64,000 nt of DNA from a virus (lineage: Duplodnaviria; Heunggongvirae; Uroviricota; Caudoviricetes). Both the position numbers and the translations under genes were made by a program. Below the pieces are notes generated by a model. The model did not search any database, had not been told where the DNA came from, and was given only the letters and a program-made list of their open reading frames with translations. Below, one piece after another: positions 34,773 to 51,047 of the stretch (its first letter is position 1; the number at the start of each line of letters is the position of its first letter). The DNA is taken from IMG/VR virus record IMGVR_UViG_3300027917_004307; one strand, written 5' to 3'.

Positions 34773-35378
34773 CTACCTCCTCGCAAGAAACTCAGGAACT
34801 TTCCGGTGCACCTGGACGACGCGTGGATCGCCAGCAGTTTTGTATTTCTCGACCAACTCAAGTATGGACGGGAATGATTCTGGATCGTACATGTTAAATA
34901 TGACGGTACCGCATTTGGCCATTGTTGGTGTATCCAAATCAGGTGTATAAATTTTAATTTCTGTGTCATAAATTGCCATGTGTATCTTGAACTTGTTAAT
35001 TATAAGCACCATCATGTCGCCTGAGATATTGTGTGCAGCAATGTCATGCTGAGCCAAAAATTCAGCAACTGCGCATTTTAATTCGTTGTTTGGATCTACC
35101 CACCCACCGGTAGACGTGTAAATAGTATCGCCAATACACATAGTCCCATCGCCAATGCGCTGCAATACTGCATCAGAAACAGTCCAACCGCTATGTATGT
35201 TGACCCAATATTCGTTGATGACCTCTATGAAGTCTTCTATTTCAATGTTCATACTCATATCCAGCAGTTCTTTAACATCACTATAAAACATCACAAGCGG
35301 GACAATATAATCATCTACAGTGCACACTAACTTTTTGCCAATGTCAAGCACAAACCCACTAGTGCTCTTGTGCTTCAC
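34773..35378 (-). CDS. fusion of family-2-like N-terminal half and family-1-like C-terminal half
   Basis: The N-terminal half carries 'YWVNIHSGWTV' (family 2 WHI motif). The C-terminal half carries 'AEFLAQHDI...NMYDPESFPSILELVEKY' (family 1). Confidence 0.5.
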   Translation of the reverse strand: MKHKSTSGFVLDIGKKLVCTVDDYIVPLVMFYSDVKELLDMSMNIEIEDFIEVINEYWVNIHSGWTVSDAVLQRIGDGTMCIGDTIYTSTGGWVDPNNELKCAVAEFLAQHDIAAHNISGDMMVLIINKFKIHMAIYDTEIKIYTPDLDTPTMAKCGTVIFNMYDPESFPSILELVEKYKTAGDPRVVQVHRKVPEFLARR

Positions 35379-35380
35379 TA

Positions 35381-35488
35381 CTACCCCTCCAGAGATTCAC
35401 TCTTCGCCGGGTGCACCTCAAACCCACGATATGGTCGCTCATAGGTGCATTGGATCTTTCCGCACTCGCCGCATTCTGCGCCGTTCAT
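35381..35488 (-). CDS. tiny Cys-rich ORF 'MNGAECGECGKIQCT...' (duplicate start module)
   Basis: 35 codons. The N-terminus is encoded by copy 1 of the 81-bp direct repeat and is identical to the start of 35546-35824 except for one residue. Confidence 0.25.
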   Translation of the reverse strand: MNGAECGECGKIQCTYERPYRGFEVHPAKSESLEG

Positions 35489-35545
35489 AAGGTCATTCCT
35501 ATCGCCAATACTACGATTATGATTGCAATCGCGTATACATTTTTG

Positions 35546-35824
35546 CTACTTCCAGAATTGCCACCACTTCTTTTCTTCAGTTAAAGGCCGTACCAATAAA
35601 GGCCGTACCAACTCAGCCAATACTTTTCTATCCGCAGGCTCTAATTTCCCTTTGGTCTCTATTCTATCAAGTTGGAGGAGAATTCCCTTCATGGCAAGCA
35701 ACTGTTTTTGTTCAACACTACGATAATCTTCTTCTAGTTGATGGCGAATGAGAGCTAGCTCCTGGGGATACCGGTCGCAGGTGCATTGAACCTTCCCACA
35801 TTTCCCGCATTCTGCACCGTTCAT
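35546..35824 (-). CDS. small Cys-rich protein (MNGAECGKCGKVQCTCD...)
   Basis: 92 aa with a 4-Cys N-terminus followed by a helical region. ATGA overlap with the upstream 20-codon ORF. Confidence 0.4.
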   Translation of the reverse strand: MNGAECGKCGKVQCTCDRYPQELALIRHQLEEDYRSVEQKQLLAMKGILLQLDRIETKGKLEPADRKVLAELVRPLLVRPLTEEKKWWQFWK

Positions 35825-35879
35825 TTGCAGATCTCCTCAATAAAACCGATCTTTCCGCACTCGCCGCATTCTGCGCCGT

Positions 35880-36188
35880 TCATAAGGTCATTCCTATCGC
35901 CAATACTACGATTATGATTGCAATCGCGCACAGCAATATCACCCACCCAGGCAATTTAGGCCCGTCTTGAATGACTCTCAATTCGGGCTTTTTGGTGGCT
36001 GCCCCCCTGCTAATTCTCTCGTTCGTGAAAGGCCCAGGGGTAAGGTTAAACTCCGCTCCACACCCATCGCATTTAATATTCACGGAGAGTCCACCTCGCG
36101 GCCCCTGCAAGAAAGCCTTAGACCCGCAGTCAGGACACCGCCCCTTGTCGAGAGTCTTGGATGCCTTTGGGTCGAGATCTTCGATCAT
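35880..36188 (-). CDS. zinc-ribbon protein with C-terminal TM anchor
   Basis: CPDCGS...CDGCGAE ribbon. The C-terminal 'WVILLCAIAIIIVVLAIGMTL' is encoded within copy 2 of the 81-bp repeat. Confidence 0.45.
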   Translation of the reverse strand: MIEDLDPKASKTLDKGRCPDCGSKAFLQGPRGGLSVNIKCDGCGAEFNLTPGPFTNERISRGAATKKPELRVIQDGPKLPGWVILLCAIAIIIVVLAIGMTL

Positions 36189-36307
36189 CTGCGGATCTCC
36201 TCAATGCGAAGCTCCTCAAGACCAATTATGATACGCCAACTCTTCAAATATCTCAAACTCATCCAGTCTTGTCTGTGTCAAAAACCATTAACTCTTCTCC
36301 TCAACTG

Positions 36308-37754: not shown

Positions 37755-38060
37755 CTAGACATGGGCGTAGCACTTCTTAATAATTTTCAGGATCCTCGGA
37801 AACGTCTCTGGATCATGCAAATCATAAACATCGTCAGACACGCCCGCGTTCAGTCTCACGCTACTCGCAATCGCCATAATTATGCATGGGTGTGGTCTGC
37901 TTTCTGCTCTAATAACAGCAAACACTTGATCAAGATCTTTTGTCTGATTGCGGATTCCAATATAACCATGAACTGTCTGATTGCGGATTCCAATATAACC
38001 ATGAACGCGAGGAACCACATTCACTCCATTCTCTTTAAGCCATTCGGCTAATTCATCCAA
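37755..38060 (-). CDS. paralog family 1 small protein containing an in-frame 33-bp tandem duplication
   Basis: 'AEWLKENGVNV' and 'DLHDPETFPRILKII'. Duplicated peptide VHGYIGIRNQT x2. Confidence 0.5.
   Translation of the reverse strand: MDELAEWLKENGVNVVPRVHGYIGIRNQTVHGYIGIRNQTKDLDQVFAVIRAESRPHPCIIMAIASSVRLNAGVSDDVYDLHDPETFPRILKIIKKCYAHV
37941..38006. repeat. perfect 2 x 33-bp tandem duplication inside gene 37755-38060
   Basis: tgtctgattgcggattccaatataaccatgaac occurs twice in immediate tandem. Confidence 0.9.
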
Positions 38061-38458: not shown

Positions 38459-38975
38459 TTAAATAGCAAGTCCTGCAAAGGGTCGTGTACTTATCCTTCC
38501 CCCCGACCTCGACATCACCTTCTTTGTTGCCCGCCTTGAAGTAAGAAAATGTGCCCATTTCTGACCCGCATTTAGTGCAGATCGCCGTCAGCATGTCGAT
38601 GGAATCGCACAGAGGGATGAGGCTTTGGATAGGTGCGAAGGGTGTTCTTTCTGAGGTCCCGTTCAGCCCACACGCAATCACGGTGCATTTCTGAGCCAGG
38701 TGATCGACCTCTGCTGCAAATTGTGGATAGTCGAAGAATTGTGCCTCATCTACCCCGATCACATCGCCTTTCGAGTGCTCAATTTCAAAAATGCCATTCA
38801 CGAAATGAATCGGGAATAGAAATGCCTTGTTGTCGTGCGTCAGATGGCCTCTAGTATCCGTCTTGGGGCGCAGCAACACCACCCTCTTGCCAGCGATACT
38901 AGCCCTCTCAAGCCGCCTGATAAGCTCCGAAGTCTTGCCAGAGAACATTGGGCCTAAAATCAATTGAAGCGTCAC
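38451..38975 (-). CDS. tdk: thymidine kinase
   Basis: P-loop 'GPMFSGKTSELI'. C-terminal zinc ribbon CTKCGSE...CRTCY. GTG start. Confidence 0.85.
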   Translation of the reverse strand: MTLQLILGPMFSGKTSELIRRLERASIAGKRVVLLRPKTDTRGHLTHDNKAFLFPIHFVNGIFEIEHSKGDVIGVDEAQFFDYPQFAAEVDHLAQKCTVIACGLNGTSERTPFAPIQSLIPLCDSIDMLTAICTKCGSEMGTFSYFKAGNKEGDVEVGGKDKYTTLCRTCYLNG

Positions 38976-39448
38976 TTGCGAAGCTCCTCAAGATCAATCA
39001 TGATATGATTCTCATCCGTCTTTGGATCCAGCCATCGAAATGTATCGCCGTGCTCCTCTGACCACGTGATCACATCCGGCAATGGGTAGCCCAGCGCGAT
39101 CCCTGTGACTTTATGTTTATCAACCGGGGGTAGGTTGCTATCACGCACCCATTTAGCCAATCTAGCAATGTCTTTATTCTCCGGCAAGAATGCAATATCA
39201 TGCCAGATGGTCAAGCCGTTCTTCGCCGCCAATTCCTCTCTATAATCTTTCCTAAATCCAGTGACTAATGGCTTCTTGCCCTCGGCGGTCTTGGCGAATT
39301 GGGTCTTGGCCGTACTGCCGTAACTCCAATATCGGGTCTTCCAATCCATGGCCTTATCGAAGGCCCTCTTGTGGCAGGCAGGGATGGACTTGCGGAGGTA
39401 GGCGAGATCTTGTTTGGCTTGAGCGATGGCGGCTTGCTTAGGGGTCAT
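38972..39448 (-). CDS. hypothetical protein
   Basis: 158-aa ORF ending in the ...LEELRK junction motif. Confidence 0.4.
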   Translation of the reverse strand: MTPKQAAIAQAKQDLAYLRKSIPACHKRAFDKAMDWKTRYWSYGSTAKTQFAKTAEGKKPLVTGFRKDYREELAAKNGLTIWHDIAFLPENKDIARLAKWVRDSNLPPVDKHKVTGIALGYPLPDVITWSEEHGDTFRWLDPKTDENHIMIDLEELRK

Positions 39449-40023
39449 TTGCGGAGCTCCTCGATGATGGCGAGCATGTCTGCGTTAGTGTGATTCCGTT
39501 TCCCGATATTGATGAATTTGCAGACCAGCTGAATATTACCCTTCACATGTCCTTGCTCCGGGTCAATTCGGTCGATAGAGACAGATTTCAACTCACCAAA
39601 CTTGTGTATCATTGAAATACCTGTTAGGGCGCAACACCCATTCTGCGATTCCCACAAATCCATAACGTAATCTATGTCAATATCCCACATACGTCTGTTG
39701 GGATCTTTGGGATCATGCGGGCCTGGCTTCTTGGAACGAGAGCGGATGCCACTGAGTTGTTTTGACAAGAAAATGCGAGGATTTTTCTCATATCTGGCTT
39801 TCAACTGTGCTTTCCCTCCTCTGTTGTGATAATGATCACGAGTTGTGGCCTGGTATTGTTCTCTGTTAGTATCTTTCCAATCCTTAATTTGCTTAGCAAT
39901 CTTGTGTTTGTTCTTCCGCCTATAATTTTTCATGTATTCCGTGTTGCATGTCTTACATATATTAGCATTATGCACGAATTCGACATCGACTTCTTTAGCG
40001 CTGCACACTCTACACTTTTTCAT
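39445..40023 (-). CDS. HNH-like endonuclease with N-terminal zinc finger
   Basis: CRVCS...CKTCN finger. C-terminal 'SIDRIDPEQGHVKGNIQLVCKFIN' resembles the HNH core. Confidence 0.4.
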   Translation of the reverse strand: MKKCRVCSAKEVDVEFVHNANICKTCNTEYMKNYRRKNKHKIAKQIKDWKDTNREQYQATTRDHYHNRGGKAQLKARYEKNPRIFLSKQLSGIRSRSKKPGPHDPKDPNRRMWDIDIDYVMDLWESQNGCCALTGISMIHKFGELKSVSIDRIDPEQGHVKGNIQLVCKFINIGKRNHTNADMLAIIEELRK

Positions 40024-40059: not shown

Positions 40060-40089
40060 AAAAAAAGAGCCCCGATTTCTCGGGGCTCT
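40060..40089 (-). terminator. rho-independent terminator downstream of the major capsid gene
   Basis: On the minus strand, agagccccgag-aaat-ctcggggctct followed by tttttttg, 27 nt after the capsid stop. Confidence 0.7.
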
Positions 40090-41695: not shown

Positions 41696-42532
41696 TTATT
41701 CGGGCATCTCACTAGCAATCTTGTCAATGTCGGATGACCCGCTTCTCCTAGCAACCCCTGCCGGGATCTCAGATTCAACCAGAGGCCTGCGGGTCGTCTT
41801 GGCCTTGGCCGGGACCTTGCGAGACTTATCAAGGCGTTCGGAGAGGGTCTTCTTGCCCTTCTTGTCTTCCGTCAGGGCTTTACCCTTCTTCTTGCCTTCA
41901 CAGGTGCATGGGGACTTCCCACAATCTTTACAACCATCGGCGCATGACTTGCAGGTGGTTCCCTCGCCCATGATGGGCGCACCACACTCGCACTTGGCGG
42001 CTCCGCCCTTCTCTTCGAGCAGACCATTCTCCTTCAAGGTACTCTCCATGAGCTGGTTCTTCTTGAGGACCTTGACGGCGATAGCGTTTGCACGATTGGC
42101 GGAATTTACTGCACGCTGCCTCTCTTCTCTGAGTTGCGTAGCGAGTTTTTCGAGGCGCTCTGACTTCTTCTCCAGGGCACGAATCTCCCGACTAGGCACA
42201 CCGCCTTCAATCTCGATATCCTCAAGAATAGCTTTGGCCTTCTTGAGGCGGGCGGTTGCTTCGGTCTCTTCTGCTACCCTCTGCTTAGTCATCGCCTGCT
42301 CGATCGACTTCACCTTGCTCTCAAGGAATACAGCCACTTTGCGTGCAAGGTTGACCTTTTCTTTAGCCACTTCTTCGATACAGATCTTTTTAGCCTTCTC
42401 GACCTTCTCCTGCAGTCGTCTCTCATACTGCTCCTTGAGGTCGTTAGAATAGTGCTCAAGATGCTCACATAGCTGGTTCGCGAGCTCTTTGGAGGCACCA
42501 ATGTTTTCCAACAACGCCAATATCTTATCCAT
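41696..42532 (-). CDS. prohead scaffold protein (gp22-like) with C-terminal Cys cluster
   Basis: Almost entirely coiled coil and charged. Immediately upstream of the capsid gene. Unusual C-terminal CKSCADGCKDCGKSPCTCEGKKKGK. Confidence 0.55.
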   Translation of the reverse strand: MDKILALLENIGASKELANQLCEHLEHYSNDLKEQYERRLQEKVEKAKKICIEEVAKEKVNLARKVAVFLESKVKSIEQAMTKQRVAEETEATARLKKAKAILEDIEIEGGVPSREIRALEKKSERLEKLATQLREERQRAVNSANRANAIAVKVLKKNQLMESTLKENGLLEEKGGAAKCECGAPIMGEGTTCKSCADGCKDCGKSPCTCEGKKKGKALTEDKKGKKTLSERLDKSRKVPAKAKTTRRPLVESEIPAGVARRSGSSDIDKIASEMPE

Positions 42533-42588: not shown

Positions 42589-42822
42589 TCATCCTACAGT
42601 TGTCCAGTCACCATCTGGTGGCAGCATTTGATTTAAATTGGCTCCACCGCTCCACGATGCTCCACACATTTTACATGTGAGATGAAAACCAGCATATATC
42701 GGAGACAAACCAGCGCCATGTGCTTTCGCTGATGTTATGAAACCATCGATGTCATCGTGTGGACATTCTTGCGTATCTCCCAAACCATCATCTAGCATTT
42801 TGGCGATTTCTTCTGGATCCAC
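42589..42822 (-). CDS. small Cys/His protein in head module
   Basis: 77 aa with 'CPHDDIDGF...CKMCGASW'. Confidence 0.35.
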   Translation of the reverse strand: MDPEEIAKMLDDGLGDTQECPHDDIDGFITSAKAHGAGLSPIYAGFHLTCKMCGASWSGGANLNQMLPPDGDWTTVG

Positions 42823-43337
42823 TAGTATTTCCTCTGCTCTTCTGGGGGCTCGTACAAGTATTTGCTGATGTCTTCTGGTTCCTCTTCCTCCGCATCATAC
42901 GGCGCAGCACCCATTGGAACATATGCTTGGTGCATAGCTTGCATCGTTTCAGATGGGATTGGTTCACCTATCAATTCACCAACCCTTTGGATCGCCGTCA
43001 AAATCTCCCCGATGTAACGAACTTCCGCAATTCCCATATGATCATCAAGATATCCCTGCGCTAAACCAATTAGCGTGTTCATCACTTCTCTGTTGGATAA
43101 GGGCGTACCAACATCTTCGCTAGCTAGCGTCTCAGCAGCACCCTTAACCGCGCCAACAGCAGCCGATCCAGCAGTCTCAAGCGCTTTAGCAGCACCCTTG
43201 GCAGCCATCTTCGCGACACCTGGACCTTTCTTCTTGACAAGTTCAATGCCAGCTTTACCCCAGTCCTTAAGCTTGCCCTCGTCAAAAAGATCTGGGTCCT
43301 CATCTATGAATTTTGCGATTTCTTCTGGAGTCAGCAT
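42822..43337 (-). CDS. Ala/Gly-rich acidic protein (candidate prohead core/internal protein)
   Basis: 171 aa with 'GVAKMAAKGAAKALETAGSAAVGAVKGAAETL' and an acidic C-terminus. Sits in a gp67/gp68-like position. Confidence 0.4.
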   Translation of the reverse strand: MLTPEEIAKFIDEDPDLFDEGKLKDWGKAGIELVKKKGPGVAKMAAKGAAKALETAGSAAVGAVKGAAETLASEDVGTPLSNREVMNTLIGLAQGYLDDHMGIAEVRYIGEILTAIQRVGELIGEPIPSETMQAMHQAYVPMGAAPYDAEEEEPEDISKYLYEPPEEQRKY

Positions 43338-45301
43338 TAATCGTTGATGGAATTGCCCATCACCTCAGCGATAGTATCCTCGGTAATCGTGTCGTCATCA
43401 ATTAGCTTCGCCAGATTGTTGCGAATGATCGTCTTAGATTCTACAACTTCGTCTGTCTCTTCCTCGCCCTCTTCCTCGCCCTCTTCCTCGCCCTCTTCCT
43501 CGCCCTCTTCCTCGCCCTCTTCCTCGCCCTCTTCTTCGCCCTCAGGAGGACCTTCAACAGGAGGACCTTCTTCACCTTCTTCGCCCTCAGGGTCTGGCGA
43601 AAGACCCATTTCTGGTTCCATGCCTTCAGGTTCGCCCTCAACCTGCTCCTCGTAAGCAAGGGCTTGGTTGATCATGATCATAGCATCATCATCCGCATTG
43701 TTCTTGATGATATTTAGGAATTTGGCCAGTTCCGCAGCGGTGATAACGCCATCATCCATCATCTCATCCGCTTCCATCTCAGGAAGGGAGTCAGCTGCAT
43801 CGGCAATATCATCGATCGGAGGTTCCTCTGCCGGTGGCATTTCACCTGGGCCTTCGTCGGTAATTTCAGCAGGAGGCCCAACTCCCTCATCACCAAACGG
43901 CATCGGCTGTTCATTGAGAGGAGCAAGCAACTCCATCTTCATGGCTTCTTCGAAATTCTCAAGCCCAAGACGCCTCTTCCAGTCATCTTCTGAAAGGACT
44001 CTACCGCCAGACACCACCTCGCACATCCTATGAAGGCGACGTGAAACCCTGCCCCTAGCGGACTCTTTGATCAACTCTAATTTCTTCATCAATTTGTTCT
44101 CCATTGAGGTTACCATACCCTTATTCTCTACGTCTTCTATTGCAGTTTCTTTGTTGTTCGGGCACCCATCTGTATCGCATGCCTTATCCGGACCGCATGT
44201 GCCACCACAGATCTTGCATTTATGTCCATCTGGACCTTGCTCGGTCATTGGCATGTCATCCGCAATGACACCACCAGCAATACCACCAGCCCCAACAGCA
44301 TCCTCAACCGGAATGCCGCATGCGCCACAATGTTCATTTATGGCCGAAGACATATGCTGGACTTCTTCATCGATGCGTGTTGAAAGATCCTTCATCGCCT
44401 TTAGCACATCAAGAATCTTCTCTTCCTTCTCTTCTTCGGTGTCACCTCTGAATAAGTCATCAAAAGTCTCTTCATCAACACCTTCAAGAGCATCGTCCAG
44501 TTCAGTTTCGGATCCACCACCAATTTCATGGTGCCTCTGCCTCAGGCGGGCCAAAAGGGGGCTCTCTTCCCTGACGATTTCACCATCGGTACCAAACACA
44601 TAACTTTCAGAAGTTAGTTTGCTACCAAGCTTGAGTATCTGAATAATTCTATCTACTGATTCTGGCATATTCTTTAAAATGTACTCCGCTATTTCATACG
44701 GGTCCCATGATTCTGGACGATCTACTTCAGTTTTCTTACCTGCCATTTCCCCAGCTTCTTGTTCGCGTTCAAATCTGCCAATCTTTTCTTTGTCTATTGA
44801 GGCATAAATGTCTTCTAAGCCTGCTTCTTTCATCACCGTAGCAACGTCGCCTGAAGACATATGTGCACTAAGAATGTTGGCTAGCTCTATTGTCTCACTC
44901 TCAATTAAATCCTTGATACTCTTATTGCCTTCCTTCTTGCGCTTCTCTTCGCGTTCTTTCTCCCTCTTCTTGGCAAATTCTTTGGCTTGTGCTCTTGCAG
45001 AAAGTTTAGAATGTGGGTCTATATAATATCCACCCAACCCACTTTCTGACTTTTTGTACACCCGCCCAGGTTTATACGTTATATCCTTCTTCTTTATTAA
45101 TTCCTGCCCAGGAGTAGGTTTTTCTTCCTCTTCCTTGACTTCGGGGAGCCCCTCGTGCTTAGTTGAAGCGAAATCTTTCGCGGCCCTTTTTGACATGCCT
45201 TTTGCAGCCTTAGCTACGGCAGGAGATGCCGGTTCTTCACCCTTTTTGGCGGCGTAGACCATTCCCATGAACCGCTGCTGCTTCTTTGATTTAGCGGGCA
45301 T
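43337..45301 (-). CDS. large acidic low-complexity protein with (GEEE)n tract and Cys clusters (candidate internal head / ejected protein)
   Basis: 654 aa. The C-terminal (EEGEEEG)n is encoded by 12-bp repeats. Cys clusters at CGACGIP...HKCKICGGTCGPDKACDTDGCPNNKE. Lies between the prohead protease and scaffold genes. Confidence 0.45.
   Translation of the reverse strand: MPAKSKKQQRFMGMVYAAKKGEEPASPAVAKAAKGMSKRAAKDFASTKHEGLPEVKEEEEKPTPGQELIKKKDITYKPGRVYKKSESGLGGYYIDPHSKLSARAQAKEFAKKREKEREEKRKKEGNKSIKDLIESETIELANILSAHMSSGDVATVMKEAGLEDIYASIDKEKIGRFEREQEAGEMAGKKTEVDRPESWDPYEIAEYILKNMPESVDRIIQILKLGSKLTSESYVFGTDGEIVREESPLLARLRQRHHEIGGGSETELDDALEGVDEETFDDLFRGDTEEEKEEKILDVLKAMKDLSTRIDEEVQHMSSAINEHCGACGIPVEDAVGAGGIAGGVIADDMPMTEQGPDGHKCKICGGTCGPDKACDTDGCPNNKETAIEDVENKGMVTSMENKLMKKLELIKESARGRVSRRLHRMCEVVSGGRVLSEDDWKRRLGLENFEEAMKMELLAPLNEQPMPFGDEGVGPPAEITDEGPGEMPPAEEPPIDDIADAADSLPEMEADEMMDDGVITAAELAKFLNIIKNNADDDAMIMINQALAYEEQVEGEPEGMEPEMGLSPDPEGEEGEEGPPVEGPPEGEEEGEEEGEEEGEEEGEEEGEEEGEEETDEVVESKTIIRNNLAKLIDDDTITEDTIAEVMGNSIND
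43457..43540. repeat. tandem 12-bp repeat (ctcttcctcgcc)n, about 7 copies, encoding (GEEE)n
   Basis: Read directly from the sequence. A coding low-complexity repeat, not a CRISPR array. Confidence 0.9.
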
Positions 45302-46016
45302 TCAGTTTCTCGGCAAGCATTCTTGAGAACTGTTCGGCAATTAGATGCTCAGCTTCTTCCCTGATTTTCTTTGGGGCATTCCTCTTGATTTCCTTGAGCG
45401 TCCTTTCACGACTCTCTTTGATGCTCAAATAAGAACCATGCACGCTAGGCTCAGCAACAATATCAAAAGTGACAAACGTAAAACCAGGCATCACTTTATA
45501 ATATTCGTTACCCTCATGGATTGTCGTCTCCATATCACCAACGCCGCGTGATGAAATGCCAAGCTGCACATTGCTCTCGATGAGTGCCTTGGCAATAGCA
45601 CCCATCGGGGTTTTCTCGATAACATGCAGCTCACCAAATACGGCATCCCCCTTCATTTGAAGTTGGGTTAGAAGGTGGGATACCCTATCAAGATGAATTT
45701 TAGCGTCGGGCGGATGATCGCATTCTCCCATCACCCGCCTGGCTTTGATGTCTTCCTGGATCTCGTTTACAGCGCTTTCCAGGATTTCCCCAGGATAAAT
45801 TCTACCATTAGCATTGGGCCTATCTGCAAATTGGAATTGGCCACCAAGCTTCAAAATGCTCCCGATGCCCTTGATGTCTTCTGTAATCGGCCTAGAAGAC
45901 AATATTAAAGGCATTGAATCTTGAAACAATTGATGGCACCCAATATTGCCAGTAATAGAGGCGGTGTGTCTGCTAACACAACCACCCTCACAATGCTTGC
46001 ATTTGAACTTCGGCAT
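45291..46016 (-). CDS. prohead core protease, T4 gp21-like (U9 family)
   Basis: 'MGECDHP' (His) and 'GISSRGVG' (Ser) match the conserved catalytic blocks of gp21. Position is between the portal-side genes and the scaffold. N-terminal CKHCEGGC. Confidence 0.7.
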   Translation of the reverse strand: MPKFKCKHCEGGCVSRHTASITGNIGCHQLFQDSMPLILSSRPITEDIKGIGSILKLGGQFQFADRPNANGRIYPGEILESAVNEIQEDIKARRVMGECDHPPDAKIHLDRVSHLLTQLQMKGDAVFGELHVIEKTPMGAIAKALIESNVQLGISSRGVGDMETTIHEGNEYYKVMPGFTFVTFDIVAEPSVHGSYLSIKESRERTLKEIKRNAPKKIREEAEHLIAEQFSRMLAEKLNAR

Positions 46017-46018
46017 AA

Positions 46019-49000
46019 TTATATCGCTGGCTTCTCTTCTTCCTCACCTGCTTCTTCGCCCTCTTCGCCCTCTTCCTCACCACCGAGGATATCTTCGATT
46101 TCCTCTTCGCCACCTTCCTCACCCCCTTCTGGCAGCTCTGGGGCTTCTTCTTCGCCAGCCTCTCCTAAGTCTGGAATGTTAGCTTCAGGAGGACCCTCTG
46201 GCGCACCACCCATTATTTCCGCGCCACCGCCGGACCCAAGATCTAATGATTTGACAACAGAATCAATTACATTGTCGATCGAATCATCAGATGCAACAAT
46301 TACCGCCACGTCTTCAGAGAGGTCTTCATCGTCCTTCTTTTCCCTCTCATTGATGGAGGACTTTTTGTAGCCGATGGGCTTGATGCCCTTAGACGACTTC
46401 TTGTACTGTGCTTCTCCAAGCCCAGGCCCGGCCATCTCAGGATCTCTCACCCCAGGCTCAATCTCGGCGGCGTCTTCAAGGAATCCAGGGCAGTCAGGAT
46501 TGGGGCAAGGTTCGCCAGGTTCGCCAGTGGTCCTTTCCATACAGTCGTAGCAGATGCACTCAGTGCCTTTGTCCATCCCGAATTCTCTGAACCTGGCGGT
46601 CATCGGCCTGCGATGGTATGGTCCGTAAATCCACTCAGGATCTTCAAGCTCGCTGAGGACATTCAGTGCTGCTTCGTCAGATCTCAATGCTTCCTTCAGC
46701 GATTTAACAGCAGCCCCAACGGAATCCTTCTTGCCTTCCACCAATGCTGCGAATTGCTCCATGAGTTCACTATTTTCGCCAATGGCCTTGTGGATCGTGG
46801 CAAGCCATTCCTTCACGTCTTCAGCCTTTTCCCAAGGCTTACCGCTATCACCGGGCTTGTCGTCATCACTCCCATCACCCTCATCGCCCTCATCGCCCTC
46901 ACTTTTCTTGCCAAACTTGTGCTTCTCAAGGGCCGGTGGTAACTTGCCTTCGGCAACACCGCCCTTGCTCTTGGCGCTAACTTTTTCTGTCTTGCTCCCC
47001 TGGTCACCTGACTTAAGTTCAGCTGAAAGGGTGTCGTCAAGTTTATCAACCCAGCCGCCGCCTTTGTATTGCTTGCCGGTCCCAGGCTGTACCTTCTCTG
47101 GGTTGCCAGCACTCTCGGCAACGCCTTTGCCCTCCGGACGATCCATCATAGCAGACCCGGTGCTTGGCTTTCCAGCATCAGGGTCGTCTTCATTATCGGC
47201 GGGAAGACCATCGTCGGATAGACCCTTCTTTTGCACGCCCTTGCCGCCTTGGTTGTCCATTTTCTGGCCGGATCCGCTTGAATAATCGGCATCACCAACG
47301 CTCTTGTTTGCAATACCCTTGCCCTTTGGGCTACCCATCTTTGGGTCACCAGAGGCTGCCTTGCCCTTGCCAGCGGAACCTGGTTCGCTGCCACTCTTAG
47401 CTGCCACACCCTTACCCTTGGGACTATCCATTTTGGCCCCGTATTCTTCATTGATTTCAGTCTCGCTGCCGACATCAATGCTATCGTATGGATCCTCGAA
47501 GAGTGCATCATCATCTACAACGACGTCATCACCGGTTTCCACCATGACGTCGCGTAAGCTCTCGAATTGCTCTTTGAGATCCTTCGCATCAAGTGTATCG
47601 CAACGCTTGATGTACTCTGCCATCTTGGCACTGTACTTGTTAAAGCCATCATCTTCGGCGAGGAAAATGTGCCCATCAGTCTTCCATTTGTCAAGTTCAG
47701 CGCTGAGTTGATCGACGGTCATTTCCTCGATGACGACTTCCTTATCCTTCTGTTCAGACTCGGGAAGCGGCGGCAATCCTTCCTCCCCTTCCTCCTCCTC
47801 GCCTCCCATCGGTAGCTCTACCACTGGGCCAGCAGGCTCCTCTTCCTGAATCGGCTCGTCACCAGGAATCTCGCTGTAAGTCTCAAGCGTCACAATACGA
47901 TCAATCAGGGTGTCAGGAATGCTGCATAGAAGCTGTTCGGCTTCCATGATGATGTCGGTTGCAGGTTCTGGCTCTTCAAGCTCAGCAATCATCGACTCAA
48001 CCTGGTTGGCCAAGTCTTCCTTTCCTTCCATCTTGGTCAAAATAGAATTGATGACCTTGAGCGTGGTGAGATATGCTTTGGCGCGAGCGGCCTGAACACT
48101 GACGCTCTCATTGAAGAGCTTACCGAGAAACGAATCATAATCCTTTGAGAAGCTCTCAGAAGACTCAAGCAGCTTCACATTGTGAAGCATCTCTGAATTT
48201 TCTGCCTTGATCGCCGTCTTCTCCCAGGCTTCACAGATTGATTGGTGGTTAACCTTTAGGTTCGTGCGATAGAATAACATCGCAACATCTTCGGCCAGAA
48301 GCGAATTAAATTCACACTTCGTTGCCAATGCTTGTTCAACCAGATTCTTGATCCCATCAGCATCTAACAAACAGAATTCCTGCTCCTCGCTAAGGAATTT
48401 GGCCGCCACTTTGACGGCTTCCTTGATCTCACCGGATGATACCATTCCGGCAATATTCCTAATCATACTGCTAAATTTATCCGATTTCCAAGCACTCTCC
48501 GCCACCGACTTCATATGCTTGGCGACGAGACGACGCCTTGTCATTTCATTCACAGGAATGTTGAACTTCTCACCAGTTTCAGGGAATTCAGCCTTGATCA
48601 CCCTGCCATTGTCATCCACTTCGACAAATTCAGAAATTGCCGAGCAGAATGCTTCCGTAATGGCTGGAATGTCATACTTCTCGCCTTCCATATCCACAGG
48701 GACGTGGTGGGCGAGCTGATCCTTAGTCGTTACCCAACCACTCTCAGGTATTACAGACGGACGGAACCTGCCGTTCTCTATGATCCTATAAATATGTTCC
48801 GCTTCTTTGAAATCATCCGCTGCCAGACTCTCTACCAGACTGATGCAATGCTGGTCGAAAGACTCAGACTTCTGCTCGTCTACGATCTTAATCGGCTGTA
48901 TATTGCTAATTTCTACCTTGCCATGCGGTTTCTTTGCAATCTTAGCATGGTGGTAGGAATTGGCTTCAACATCCTCGAAGATCATTGAGTTGGCTTCGAG

Positions 49001-49162
49001 AGCAACAAGCCGGAAATTCTTTCCAGCCTCTTCCCCGAGCTTATTCACAATTCCTTCGAAGAATACTACCTTAGATTGAGCCGACGTGTTGATCGCACGC
49101 AGAAACTTCCTGGCATCCATAGTCAGCGGAGCCGGAGACGTGTTCTGATCTGTGCTGGGCAT
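46019..49162 (-). CDS. giant acidic low-complexity protein (1047 aa) with PKGKG repeats, Cys cluster and poly-Glu tail
   Basis: Repeats KMDSPKGKGVAAK / KMGSPKGKGIANK / KMDNQGGKGVQKK / MMDRPEGKGVAES. Cys cluster CICYDCMERTTGEPGEPCPNPDCPG. C-terminal GEEGGEEEIEDILGGEEEGEEGEEAGEEEEK. Sits between the portal and prohead protease, where gp67/gp68 lie in T4. Confidence 0.45.
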   Translation of the reverse strand: MPSTDQNTSPAPLTMDARKFLRAINTSAQSKVVFFEGIVNKLGEEAGKNFRLVALEANSMIFEDVEANSYHHAKIAKKPHGKVEISNIQPIKIVDEQKSESFDQHCISLVESLAADDFKEAEHIYRIIENGRFRPSVIPESGWVTTKDQLAHHVPVDMEGEKYDIPAITEAFCSAISEFVEVDDNGRVIKAEFPETGEKFNIPVNEMTRRRLVAKHMKSVAESAWKSDKFSSMIRNIAGMVSSGEIKEAVKVAAKFLSEEQEFCLLDADGIKNLVEQALATKCEFNSLLAEDVAMLFYRTNLKVNHQSICEAWEKTAIKAENSEMLHNVKLLESSESFSKDYDSFLGKLFNESVSVQAARAKAYLTTLKVINSILTKMEGKEDLANQVESMIAELEEPEPATDIIMEAEQLLCSIPDTLIDRIVTLETYSEIPGDEPIQEEEPAGPVVELPMGGEEEEGEEGLPPLPESEQKDKEVVIEEMTVDQLSAELDKWKTDGHIFLAEDDGFNKYSAKMAEYIKRCDTLDAKDLKEQFESLRDVMVETGDDVVVDDDALFEDPYDSIDVGSETEINEEYGAKMDSPKGKGVAAKSGSEPGSAGKGKAASGDPKMGSPKGKGIANKSVGDADYSSGSGQKMDNQGGKGVQKKGLSDDGLPADNEDDPDAGKPSTGSAMMDRPEGKGVAESAGNPEKVQPGTGKQYKGGGWVDKLDDTLSAELKSGDQGSKTEKVSAKSKGGVAEGKLPPALEKHKFGKKSEGDEGDEGDGSDDDKPGDSGKPWEKAEDVKEWLATIHKAIGENSELMEQFAALVEGKKDSVGAAVKSLKEALRSDEAALNVLSELEDPEWIYGPYHRRPMTARFREFGMDKGTECICYDCMERTTGEPGEPCPNPDCPGFLEDAAEIEPGVRDPEMAGPGLGEAQYKKSSKGIKPIGYKKSSINEREKKDDEDLSEDVAVIVASDDSIDNVIDSVVKSLDLGSGGGAEIMGGAPEGPPEANIPDLGEAGEEEAPELPEGGEEGGEEEIEDILGGEEEGEEGEEAGEEEEKPAI

Positions 49163-49232: not shown

Positions 49233-51047
49233 TTATCCTGTGAGGTTATCTTCCTCGTCGCCTGAGTGTATTGATTCTAGCAATATTTTCATTTCCTTCT
49301 TAGCTGATTTTCGATCTATAGGATCGATGACGCTATCGACCAATAATGCATCGTCCTTACCCTTCAACCCATCCAATTCATTATTGTTAAGCAAGAATTC
49401 AAAGCTTGATGAATATCTCGTTGGTACGGTAGGAACTTTGTTCTCGCTTTCCTCAATCATCTCCATGAGTGTTTTCTCTGTCTTGGCATCATAACTTTCT
49501 AGAGCGCCACCCATCATTTCTCCACCTTCTCCACCTCCACCACCTCCACCACCTTCTCCACCTTCTCCACCTCCACCACCTTCTCCGCCAAGAAGACCAC
49601 CACCGAGACCGCCACCGAGACCACCACCGAGACCACCGCCTTTACCACCTTCGCCACCCATTTCAAGTCCTTCTTCCATGGCTTTCTTTTTTTCTTCTTG
49701 CATTTGTCTAATTTCGTCTTCAGTCATATCTGTGAATCTCTTCAAGATCCACTCATCAGGAAATAATTCAGTACCCTTTAAAGCATCAATTACGTCTGCC
49801 CTGGAAGCCCAGGTCTCAATCCTATACAACTCGTCAATTGCAGAACTAGCAGTCATGTGCAACGAGAAGTTCTTGAGGTCCTTTTCTGAATAGCCCCTCA
49901 AAGCAAGATGGACGATAGCTGCCTTTTTGAGACCCATAGCTGCTTCACGTTGTACCCATTGCACAGCTTTGGCAAACTCGGGTGACACTTGCGATAACGA
50001 CTTGGTTTCGTTCTCTCCAGATTCGCCAATCCCAACTCTGCTGTACGGAATCTTGAGTCCAGAGATCATTTTCTTCTTGAAGTACTCAATATCTGCTATT
50101 TGATCGAGGTTTTCAGCGCCTGGTAGAGTCTCAACTTTAGGGCCGGTGCCGTCTGATCTCATGGGCAGCCAGAAATCATCTTCTTGTATAAGTGGATTCC
50201 ATCGCTCATTCACATCGCCAGTTGCTGGATCAAAGAATCTCCTTTTCTTGAATGTGTTCGCTATCTTCTCCATGTAACCAGGAATTTCATGAGTCGGAAT
50301 TTGGCCGACAGGAATTGTGAAAACGCGCTTCTCGGGCGCACGGGTCAAACGATAGATAATTGCCGCATCTTCCATCAAGCGAAGCTGCTTGAAGTGTTTC
50401 CTCGCGCCGTTTAACAGTGATCGGCCATATGGATGAAATAAATTCTCATATGAAGTAAGCCTCATATGCATCACTTGCCACGGGTGTAAGAATTCTGGAC
50501 TCCTAACCAATTCATCTTGGTAAAAGAATCCTACAAGATCACCGAATTTAGTCTCAACCCTAGTAAAATTATAAATATTCATGAATCTGATACTTGCAAC
50601 ACCATCCCTATTCTTAGTCGGAATTATCTCAGCAGGGAAATCACCATACTTGACCAAGTACCTGATCATTGGACGCAGGGTATTGTCGATCAATAGAGTA
50701 TCATAAAATAGCTCTTCAAGTTCATTCTTGACTGCTTTGGTCTTGGCCTTTACCATTATTGAGTGTTTTGACTCACTGTCAATTAATGAAGCTTCATCTG
50801 AATATAAATCCAACGCGAGAGACATCTCGCCGACTTCATCCATCTGGTCGTAGTCTTTATACCTCTCTAAGCGATTAATATGAAGATTTGTTTGTTCTAG
50901 AAGTGCATGTTGCGAAGATAGATTTATGAAATCGCCTGAAGCAATTAATTTGTCAATCGACGATTGGTCAGTGAACAGATTGTCGCCACGATAAACATTG
51001 CTTTGCTTGAAATAAGCGGCGATTCTGTCAAATAATTGCCAGCTCAT
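49233..51047 (-). CDS. portal protein, T4 gp20-like, with C-terminal Gly-rich insertion
   Basis: 'AIIYRLTRAPEKRVFTIPVG' aligns with T4 gp20 '[21 protein letters not shown]'. 604 aa versus 524 in T4, the extra length being a (GGE/GGL)n tract. Confidence 0.8.
   Translation of the reverse strand: MSWQLFDRIAAYFKQSNVYRGDNLFTDQSSIDKLIASGDFINLSSQHALLEQTNLHINRLERYKDYDQMDEVGEMSLALDLYSDEASLIDSESKHSIMVKAKTKAVKNELEELFYDTLLIDNTLRPMIRYLVKYGDFPAEIIPTKNRDGVASIRFMNIYNFTRVETKFGDLVGFFYQDELVRSPEFLHPWQVMHMRLTSYENLFHPYGRSLLNGARKHFKQLRLMEDAAIIYRLTRAPEKRVFTIPVGQIPTHEIPGYMEKIANTFKKRRFFDPATGDVNERWNPLIQEDDFWLPMRSDGTGPKVETLPGAENLDQIADIEYFKKKMISGLKIPYSRVGIGESGENETKSLSQVSPEFAKAVQWVQREAAMGLKKAAIVHLALRGYSEKDLKNFSLHMTASSAIDELYRIETWASRADVIDALKGTELFPDEWILKRFTDMTEDEIRQMQEEKKKAMEEGLEMGGEGGKGGGLGGGLGGGLGGGLLGGEGGGGGEGGEGGGGGGGGEGGEMMGGALESYDAKTEKTLMEMIEESENKVPTVPTRYSSSFEFLLNNNELDGLKGKDDALLVDSVIDPIDRKSAKKEMKILLESIHSGDEEDNLTG
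49515..49660. repeat. Gly-codon low-complexity tract (ccacc/tcc repeats) encoding the GGEGGKGGGLGGGLGGG... insertion in the portal
   Basis: Read directly from the sequence. Confidence 0.85.

Follow-up and report, generated by a model that had tools for sequence, protein, structure and literature searches.

We examined an 81-bp direct repeat and the small genes around it in a 64,000-nucleotide stretch of DNA (64 kb, referred to here as the window) from IMG/VR virus record IMGVR_UViG_3300027917_004307. The window lies within contig k141_869270 of ENA ERZ27279932, a 261,688-bp metagenomic MEGAHIT contig that is seen in one sample only. The contig carries genes for a Gp23-type major capsid protein (MCP; PF07068 match), large terminase, ribonucleotide reductase and helicase, nearly all of its genes lie on one strand, and its source is an uncultured T4-like jumbo phage. 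Coordinates follow the numbering of the 64-kb window, and every gene at the locus lies on the minus strand.

Read along the minus strand, the locus consists of gene A, one repeat copy (R2), the remainder of a stub open reading frame (ORF), gene B, 12 nt, the other repeat copy (R1), the remainder of ORF C, and gene D (Table 1). Homologues of A (P0003 and P0004) have the Zn-ribbon core alone in common with it, contain no transmembrane (TM) tail, and occur in unrelated contexts. A sequence-only reading of the window had described the stub, B, and C as three consecutive ATGA-coupled ORFs with near-identical starts. The three ORFs exist with the lengths reported (20 codons, 92 aa, and 35 codons). 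We found that ATGA coupling holds from A to the stub and from the stub to B, but not for C: the B stop (35546-35548) lies 57 nt upstream of the C ATG (35486-35488), and at C the ATGA overlap is with an orphaned A-tail copy only. Likewise, the stub and C share one start, since both lie in the repeat, but the start of B has only 79% DNA identity to it over 53 nt. We considered whether C was an internal-deletion derivative of a B paralogue and dropped this idea, as the similarity at the 3' end was no better than in shuffled sequences. Programmed frameshifting out of B into the frame of the orphan TM tail was also dropped; the sequence contains no slippery heptamer.

Table 1. Position and content of the features at and near the repeat locus (SD, Shine-Dalgarno sequence).
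Feature	Position	Strand	Content
Gene D, 201 aa, ORFan	34773..35378	minus	GTG start 2 nt past the C stop; SD GGAGGGG inside the C 3' end
ORF C, 35 aa	35381..35488	minus	B-type knuckle module, then an unrelated tail
Repeat copy R1	35453..35533	minus	Orphan A tail plus functional SD, start and codons 1-12 of C
Cassette S, 314 bp	35534..35847	minus	GGTTTT, 20-nt tail/SD linker ATTGAGGAGATCTGCAAATG, gene B, TAG, then CAAAAATGTATA
Gene B, 92 aa	35546..35824	minus	N-terminal Cys knuckle CxxCx4CxC, predicted three-helix bundle, WWQFWK tail
Internal tandem duplication in B, perfect 15 bp x2, in frame	35582..35611	minus	LVRPL LVRPL; absent from B homologues
Stub ORF, 20 codons	35821..35883	minus	MNGAECGECGKI followed by GFIEEICK and stop; ATGA-coupled to A (upstream) and B (downstream)
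Linker J3	35822..35841	minus	ATTGAGGAGATCTGCAAATG, inside S; IEEICK tail, SD GAGGAG, overlapping ATGA start of B
Repeat copy R2	35848..35928	minus	Functional A end (15 codons and stop) plus stub ORF codons 1-12
Gene A, 102 aa	35880..36188	minus	Zn-ribbon core (weak Lar-like matches) and C-terminal TM helix WVILLC/AIAIIIVVLAIGM crossing the left boundary of R2
Linker J2'	36186..36205	minus	Directly upstream of A; 18/20 positions equal to J3
Orphan tail copy, 29 nt, 93% identical	36205-36233 vs 38977-39005	minus	3' end of the 158-aa ORF; intergenic, upstream of A
Linker J1	38973..38992	minus	End of the 158-aa ORF (...LEELRK-stop) and overlapping GTGA start of thymidine kinase
Linker J0	39446..39465	minus	C-terminus of the 192-aa endonuclease VII/HNH-like ORF (...IIEELRK-stop) and overlapping ATGA start of the 158-aa ORF

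An 81-bp repeat holds the junction of two overlapping genes

As had been reported from the sequence, the two copies of the repeat (R) are 100% identical, with 0/81 nt differing and 395 bp from start to start. R is the longest exact local repeat in the window and the sole long perfect dispersed one, present in exactly 2 copies, and exact local repeats in 20 codon-shuffled windows were no longer than 16 nt. On the minus strand, nucleotides 1-49 of the 81 comprise the final nucleotide of a Cys codon followed by the last 15 codons of A (AIAIIIVVLAIGMTL) and its stop; the remainder, entered through the ATGA overlap, is the start of C with its 12 initial codons (MNGAECGECGKI). R thus encodes the TM tail of one gene overlapping the start of the next, as the sequence-only reading had stated. 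The copy of the A tail inside R1 is an orphan, as its frame contains no start codon.

No promoter-like or terminator-like site was found within either copy of R. The RNA fold of R was no better than that of shuffled sequences (z = +0.24; z = -0.53 for the wider context of R2), no structured RNA or Rfam element was found in or around R, and an exact scan of IMG/VR for the repeat core returned 0 matches.

The segment between the repeat copies and its joints

The segment between the two copies, S, and one copy of R together measure 395 bp, of which only 81 bp recur. We found no second copy of S in the window, i.e., there is no whole unit standing twice head to tail as in a tandem segmental duplication. 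Past the B stop, S ends (35534-35545) in CAAAA-ATGTATA, with an ATG 5 nt after the stop and downstream of a GGAAG in the B tail. It is possibly the start codon of a gene that stood downstream of B at an earlier location.

The two outer joints of the structure can be judged from the genes that cross them. The hydrophobic helix of A (WVILLCAIAIIIVVLAIGM; ...WVILLC/AIAIIIVVLAIGMTL-stop) takes residues from both sides of the left boundary of R2, and because the helix spans this boundary the joint between the A head and R2 is native. In C, homology to the B-family knuckle runs 17 nt past R1 (CAATGCACCT..GCGACC, as in B), and because this homology crosses the R1/C boundary the joint between R1 and the rest of C is native as well. 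With both outer joints native, the ancestral order would have been A-R-C, with S and one copy of R as the novelty. The novel joints are therefore ...AAAGATC/GGTTTT... and ...TGTATA/CGCGATT....

We next compared the start of B with the repeated start. Over their first 20 codons B and C differ at 11 (5 synonymous and 6 non-synonymous), against 0/81 nt between the copies of R. This divergence suggests that two of the three similar starts stem from one recent event while the third is an old paralogue. The similar start of B is a case of old paralogy within a small protein family that is also present in other phages. The proposal of a very recent local duplication therefore stands in part: R is recent or recently homogenised, but there was no triplication, with 81 of 395 bp duplicated and S distinct and of lower G+C content at third codon positions (GC3). 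GC3 is 0.45 in B compared to 0.58 in A, 0.64 in C, and 0.57-0.62 in the upstream genes, a composition that agrees weakly with S as a separate unit.

A probable insertion that duplicated the A/C junction

Our data suggest that the locus is probably a recently acquired gene cassette, inserted into the A/C junction with an 81-bp duplication of that junction, and not a triplication. In the proposed ancestral order, A-R-C-D, A and the short Cys-knuckle peptide ORF C would have been coupled translationally via their ATGA overlap. Insertion of the 314-bp S, together with duplication of the junction R, would then have produced A-R-S-R-C. S would have brought with it the tail and SD linker of its former upstream gene, B, and probably the first 7 nt of its former downstream gene. 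After the insertion, R2 would retain the TM tail and stop of A while R1 would retain the SD and start of C. The by-products would be the 20-codon stub, which relays ATGA coupling from A through the stub to B, and the orphan A tail upstream of C. Since the A stop and the C start overlap, an insertion that did not duplicate the junction would break at least one of the two genes, and selection would therefore filter for insertions that do. By chance alone, the frame match of the stub, which preserves the chain from A to B, would be expected in 1 of 3 cases. The insertion may have proceeded by two template switches or two illegitimate joins involving a donor, or a circle containing R may have integrated in the Campbell manner.

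Recombination between the copies of R could delete B precisely, yielding A-R-C and a 395-bp circle. In T4-type recombination less than 50 bp of homology suffices (Singer et al. 1982, as cited in PMC2839356), and given that the 81-bp copies of R exceed this length, B would be lost at appreciable frequency unless selected. This supports the earlier view of R as a substrate for homologous recombination. We infer that B is an accessory gene prone to gain and loss. For annotation, neither the stub nor the orphan tail should count as a gene in its own right, and B is best treated as readily lost. If the proposed history is correct, the locus captures, nearly in the act, a gene being gained in a hyperplastic phage region, with both scars (the stub ORF and the orphan gene tail) perfectly preserved, and it suggests that, through junction duplication, two overlapping and translationally coupled genes can take up a cassette between them and both stay intact.

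Homologues of gene B in other phages

Homologues of B are rare. A search of 5.8 billion clustered proteins returned one (P0002, 48% identity), a profile search against 1.84 billion representatives yielded no more than 8, and a degenerate DNA scan for the family added two further JGI contigs. A profile scan of IMG/VR for the B family found no relatives, and a degenerate knuckle scan gave 0 matches in IMG/VR and 0 in GTDB genomes. Members of the family are approximately 90 aa long and contain a Cys knuckle (CxxCx4CxC) or a Cys-less version of it (MPNGGFGDV...), a helical body, and a W(W/Y)QFWK(RS) tail; the N-terminal module reads MNGAECGxCGxxQCTxxR. The AlphaFold2 model of B is a generic three-helix bundle (mean pLDDT, the predicted local distance difference test score, 75), and no informative match was found for B in Pfam, PHROG, PADLOC, PDB, or by fold, including to transposases, integrases, or homing endonucleases. 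One protein, P0011, fuses a B-type knuckle to an unrelated coiled-coil tail, much as C does. Since P0011 and C both join the knuckle to unrelated tails, the knuckle behaves as a portable N-terminal module.

B-family genes in other phages occur in cassettes whose order has been shuffled and whose junctions recur. The gene orders around them in three contigs that are otherwise similar are nuclease-B-x66-P89-AAA_24 (L003), nuclease-B-AAA_24 (L007), and P109-B-y93-AAA_24 (L008). In all three, the FWKRS-stop tail (TTTTGGAAAAGGAGTTAAC.AATG) bears the SD for the next gene, and this sequence occurs at every junction, including a non-coding copy after y93. The y93 cassette of L008 is bracketed by a junction repeat of approximately 31 nt, the copies lying 313 bp apart, and L007 represents the empty site. 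Together, L008 and L007 present an R-S-R-type architecture as a natural presence/absence polymorphism.

In L003 (924-4217), L007, and L008 (4008-5600), the B-family genes stand between a gene with conserved Cys residues in its C-terminus, possibly a nuclease, and an AAA_24 ATPase. In L003, genes for QueD (PTPS), a radical-SAM QueE-like protein, and GTP cyclohydrolase I come next, and together they resemble a 7-deazaguanine DNA-modification module.

The locus lies in a hyperplastic region

No close relative of the source phage was found among cultured phages, and megablast of the locus against INPHARED phages gave no match. As relatives we used 80 IMG/VR loci retrieved by MCP (73-87% aa identity; contigs up to 408 kb) and compared the 10-kb flanks of MCP. 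The structural genes are widely shared: in addition to MCP itself (80 relatives), the genes at 41696-42532 (78), 45291-46016 (61), 46019-49162 (50), and 49233-51047 (47), and terminase (30). Conversely, U158, thymidine kinase (TK), A, B, D, and E220 were found in 0/80 relatives within 10 kb of MCP. Among the ORFs from 39448 down to approximately 28000, only three had any match in the relatives (U272 at 2 loci; two ORFs near 29 kb, each at a single locus). Because the structural genes are common to 30-80 relatives while the ORFs of 28-39.4 kb are almost without match, the locus lies in a hyperplastic region, i.e., an ORFan-rich segment beside conserved core modules.

The hyperplastic region starts at the 192-aa endonuclease VII/HNH-like ORF (39445-40023; phrog_3322, phrog_1035), which directly follows MCP and a strong intrinsic-terminator-like hairpin (40066-40089). 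This gene also stands directly after MCP in 33/80 relatives, and we rejected the 192-aa ORF as a local homing endonuclease on account of this synteny. Gene D as query found no relatives in IMG/VR or JGI metagenomes, and the search of 5.8 billion proteins returned D alone.

The sequence-only reading had also proposed an actively rearranging hotspot. This is supported by the hyperplastic character of the region relative to the 80 relatives, by tandem duplications at 35582-35611 and 37941-38006, and by the orphan tail at 36205-36233.

Two of the relatives contain tandem arrays of small paralogues downstream of MCP (L065, 13039-13593; L074, 12842-14840), with a period of approximately 310-420 bp and copies 90-95% identical, so the hyperplastic region of this clade also undergoes tandem gene amplification.

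Weighing the insertion against other explanations

Several observations weigh against insertion with junction duplication as the history of the locus. Microhomology is not evident at either novel joint, and a donor site for the ends of S was not found elsewhere in the window. The low GC3 of B is shared by D (0.47) and E220 (0.43) just downstream, so composition is not unique to S. To our knowledge, an 81-bp target duplication has no defined enzymatic precedent. The perfect identity of the copies of R could reflect gene conversion and not recency. Comparison with related genomes showed the region to be variable across the 80 MCP relatives, but none had an A-R-C site; across INPHARED, IMG/VR, JGI, and protein searches there was no close relative with the empty site and no relative of A, C, or D with this synteny. 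The polarity of events, insertion as opposed to another history, would accordingly have to be read from the internal logic of the locus. We examined 64 kb of the 261.7-kb contig, and the structure is known from assembled sequence alone.

We consider it unlikely that A-R-S-R-C is an old arrangement in which the copies of R have been kept identical by frequent gene conversion and/or by selection on the A tail and the C start, in which case their identity would carry no information on age. Efficient recombination on short homologies in T4-type phages (PMC2839356) would allow it, coding constrains part of each copy, R2 through the A tail and R1 through the C start, and older, diverged junction copies occur nearby, such as the 93% copy at 36205-36233. 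However, no coding constraint is evident on the half of R1 that holds the orphan A tail or on the half of R2 that holds the stub, and still the copies show 0/81 differences. Homogenising recombination should delete S as well. Furthermore, the perfect 15-bp duplication in B, which is not in its homologues, fits recent local change.

It is less probable still that the assembler joined two strain variants (A-R-S-... and ...-S-R-C, or A-R-C and a separate R+S molecule) into a chimera. Repeats are classic sites of misassembly, and no second contig confirms the structure of this one. In de Bruijn assembly, however, the junctions of a repeat shorter than k are carried by read-derived k-mers. The contig name implies a final k of 141, which exceeds the 81 bp of the repeat, and k-mers containing the whole repeat and both flanks would have been required for A-R-S and for S-R-C. 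A free R+S circle alongside A-R-C would instead yield S-R-S and A-R-C k-mers, and a join within S needs two independent rare variants. The contig is unbroken over 261.7 kb. The assembly artefact raised by the sequence-only reading is thus unlikely.

A simple tandem duplication, in which a segment with the MNGAECG start was copied two or three times where it stood and the copies then diverged, was the earlier proposal and is very improbable. Three similar starts do occur within 400 bp, and the relatives L065 and L074 have small-paralogue arrays with a period of approximately 310-420 bp, but the anatomy largely refutes this reading: the duplication is confined to R, S has no second copy, the 5 synonymous differences in the B start against identical copies of R indicate events of greatly different age, and orthologues of B at 48% identity occur in unrelated contexts. 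Equally remote is the idea that S is a transposable element or homing-type mobile gene with R as its target-site duplication, since the direct flanking repeats, the varying positions of the B family in other phages, and an endonuclease VII/HNH-like gene 3.6 kb away are set against an S that has no terminal inverted repeats, a B that matches no transposase, integrase, or homing endonuclease, a repeat far longer than known target-site duplications, and an HNH-like gene that is conserved and syntenic in 33 relatives.

Comparison with known phage systems

The closest documented case is gene 68 of mycobacteriophage Island3 (Pope et al. 2011, PMC3029335). The sister phage Brujita lacks this small ORF, which has no homologues, and on each side of it stands a copy, approximately 50 bp long, from the 3' end of the gene upstream. 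The authors read gene 68 as either the outcome of recombination between these copies or a substrate for it (PMC3029335). B is likewise flanked by perfect repeats and absent from the 80 MCP relatives, and R likewise derives from the 3' end of the upstream gene (A). R differs in being longer (81 bp), in being perfect, and in including the overlapping start and 12 codons of an ATGA-coupled downstream gene. Moreover, a sister genome with the empty site is known for Island3. No such genome was found for the locus described here, and an analogous pair exists for the B-family locus of other phages, where y93 is present in L008 and missing from L007.

A second comparison is with the promoter-early stem-loop (PeSL) elements of T4-like phages (Arbiol et al. 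2010, PMC2839356; Comeau et al. 2014, PMC4122927). These intergenic elements combine an SD with a terminator stem-loop and a sigma-70-like early promoter. PeSL repeats flank small ORFans in hyperplastic regions of T4-type phages, and recombination between them deletes or inserts the ORF and releases mini-circles of approximately 400-800 bp (PMC2839356, PMC4122927); circles of approximately 400 bp were demonstrated for the PeSL-flanked ORFan210 (PMC2839356). The locus resembles these systems in that short direct repeats surround a small ORF in a hyperplastic region and in that the repeated element would permit expression of the cassette without disrupting its neighbours. In contrast to the intergenic PeSL, R is coding (a gene tail and the next start) and has no stem-loop or sigma-70-like promoter. 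PeSL elements also occur as many dispersed copies, mostly within hyperplastic regions, whereas R is a single perfect pair, and the dispersed 20-nt element near the locus is a translational linker of tail, SD, and start, not a transcriptional one.

Short conserved boundary or linker sequences at phage mosaic joints are possible crossover points (refs 21, 22 in PMC3029335). The 20-nt linker near R (encoding [IL]EE[LI]R[KR]-stop with SD and ATGA) and the FWKRS-stop/SD linker in L003, L007, and L008 are similar in kind, but the linker in S lies 6 nt from the 5' end of S and is not itself the crossover point. Transposon target-site duplication offers a further likeness, an insert flanked by a direct duplication of its target, and differs in its length of a few bp compared to 81 bp and in the terminal inverted repeats and transposase that S lacks. 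Overall, the locus is an unusually fresh and clean but fairly ordinary example of known gain and loss of small phage genes.

Linkers and other scars near the locus

A 20-nt linker (pattern [AC]T[TC]GAGGAG[AC]T[CT][CT]GCA[AG][AG]TGA) encodes the tail ...[IL]EE[LI][RC][KR]-stop and overlaps the start of the next gene. It is common to otherwise unrelated genes and confined to a 3.7-kb stretch (35.8-39.5 kb). The strict pattern has 3 matches against 0.01 expected by chance; a looser pattern gives 4 full copies, and there is one half copy in addition. In relatives, the counterparts of the 192-aa protein finish with comparable terminal helices (FIRDLRSQ-stop, FLKDVRNS-stop, and WLKAIREA-stop), and the linker tail is therefore native to the 192-aa ORF. 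The remaining copies look derived. The orphan copy of the tail of the 158-aa ORF lies 2772 bp from the original, with the TK-to-U93 block between the two.

We tentatively raise a broader possibility, which we regard as rather doubtful: that translational-coupling junctions, consisting of a tail, an embedded SD, and an overlapping start, may be preferred sites of cassette gain and loss and serve as linkers that are duplicated at each insertion, both in this jumbo-phage clade and in the unrelated phages with B-family genes. R-S-R would then be the freshest product, excisable as a 395-bp circle. Such a process would explain the common C-terminal tails in unrelated neighbours (HNH192, U158, the remnant upstream of A, and the stub), as well as the common N-terminal starts of neighbours (C with the stub, the 171-aa with the 77-aa ORF, and y93 with AAA_24) and the orphan tails, and it would be a counterpart of PeSL-mediated shuffling at the level of translation. 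Shared tails and starts between unrelated neighbouring small phage genes may be fossils of such events. The idea draws on few cases and is offered as a lead.

A perfect in-frame tandem duplication of 33 bp x2 (37941-38006) lies 2 kb from R-S-R in a 101-aa ORFan (37755-38060), where it doubles VHGYIGIRNQT. This duplication is very recent.

The adjacent 171-aa and 77-aa ORFs (42589-43337) have similar N-termini (MLTPEEIAKFIDE and MDPEEIAKMLDD), with a start repeat of 30 nt at 87% identity (42788-42817 vs 43300-43329). Both ORFs are absent from the 80 relatives, and the structural genes that flank them are conserved. Small genes of L074 (about 12.8-14.5 kb) hold an FI(T/D)EDPD motif that resembles the starts of these two ORFs. 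Elsewhere in the window, a low-complexity in-frame repeat of 12 bp x7, (EEGE)n, occurs at 43457-43543 in a 654-aa ORF, and in-frame repeats with periods of 9 to 27 bp occur at 49518-49637 in a 604-aa ORF that is conserved in 47 relatives.

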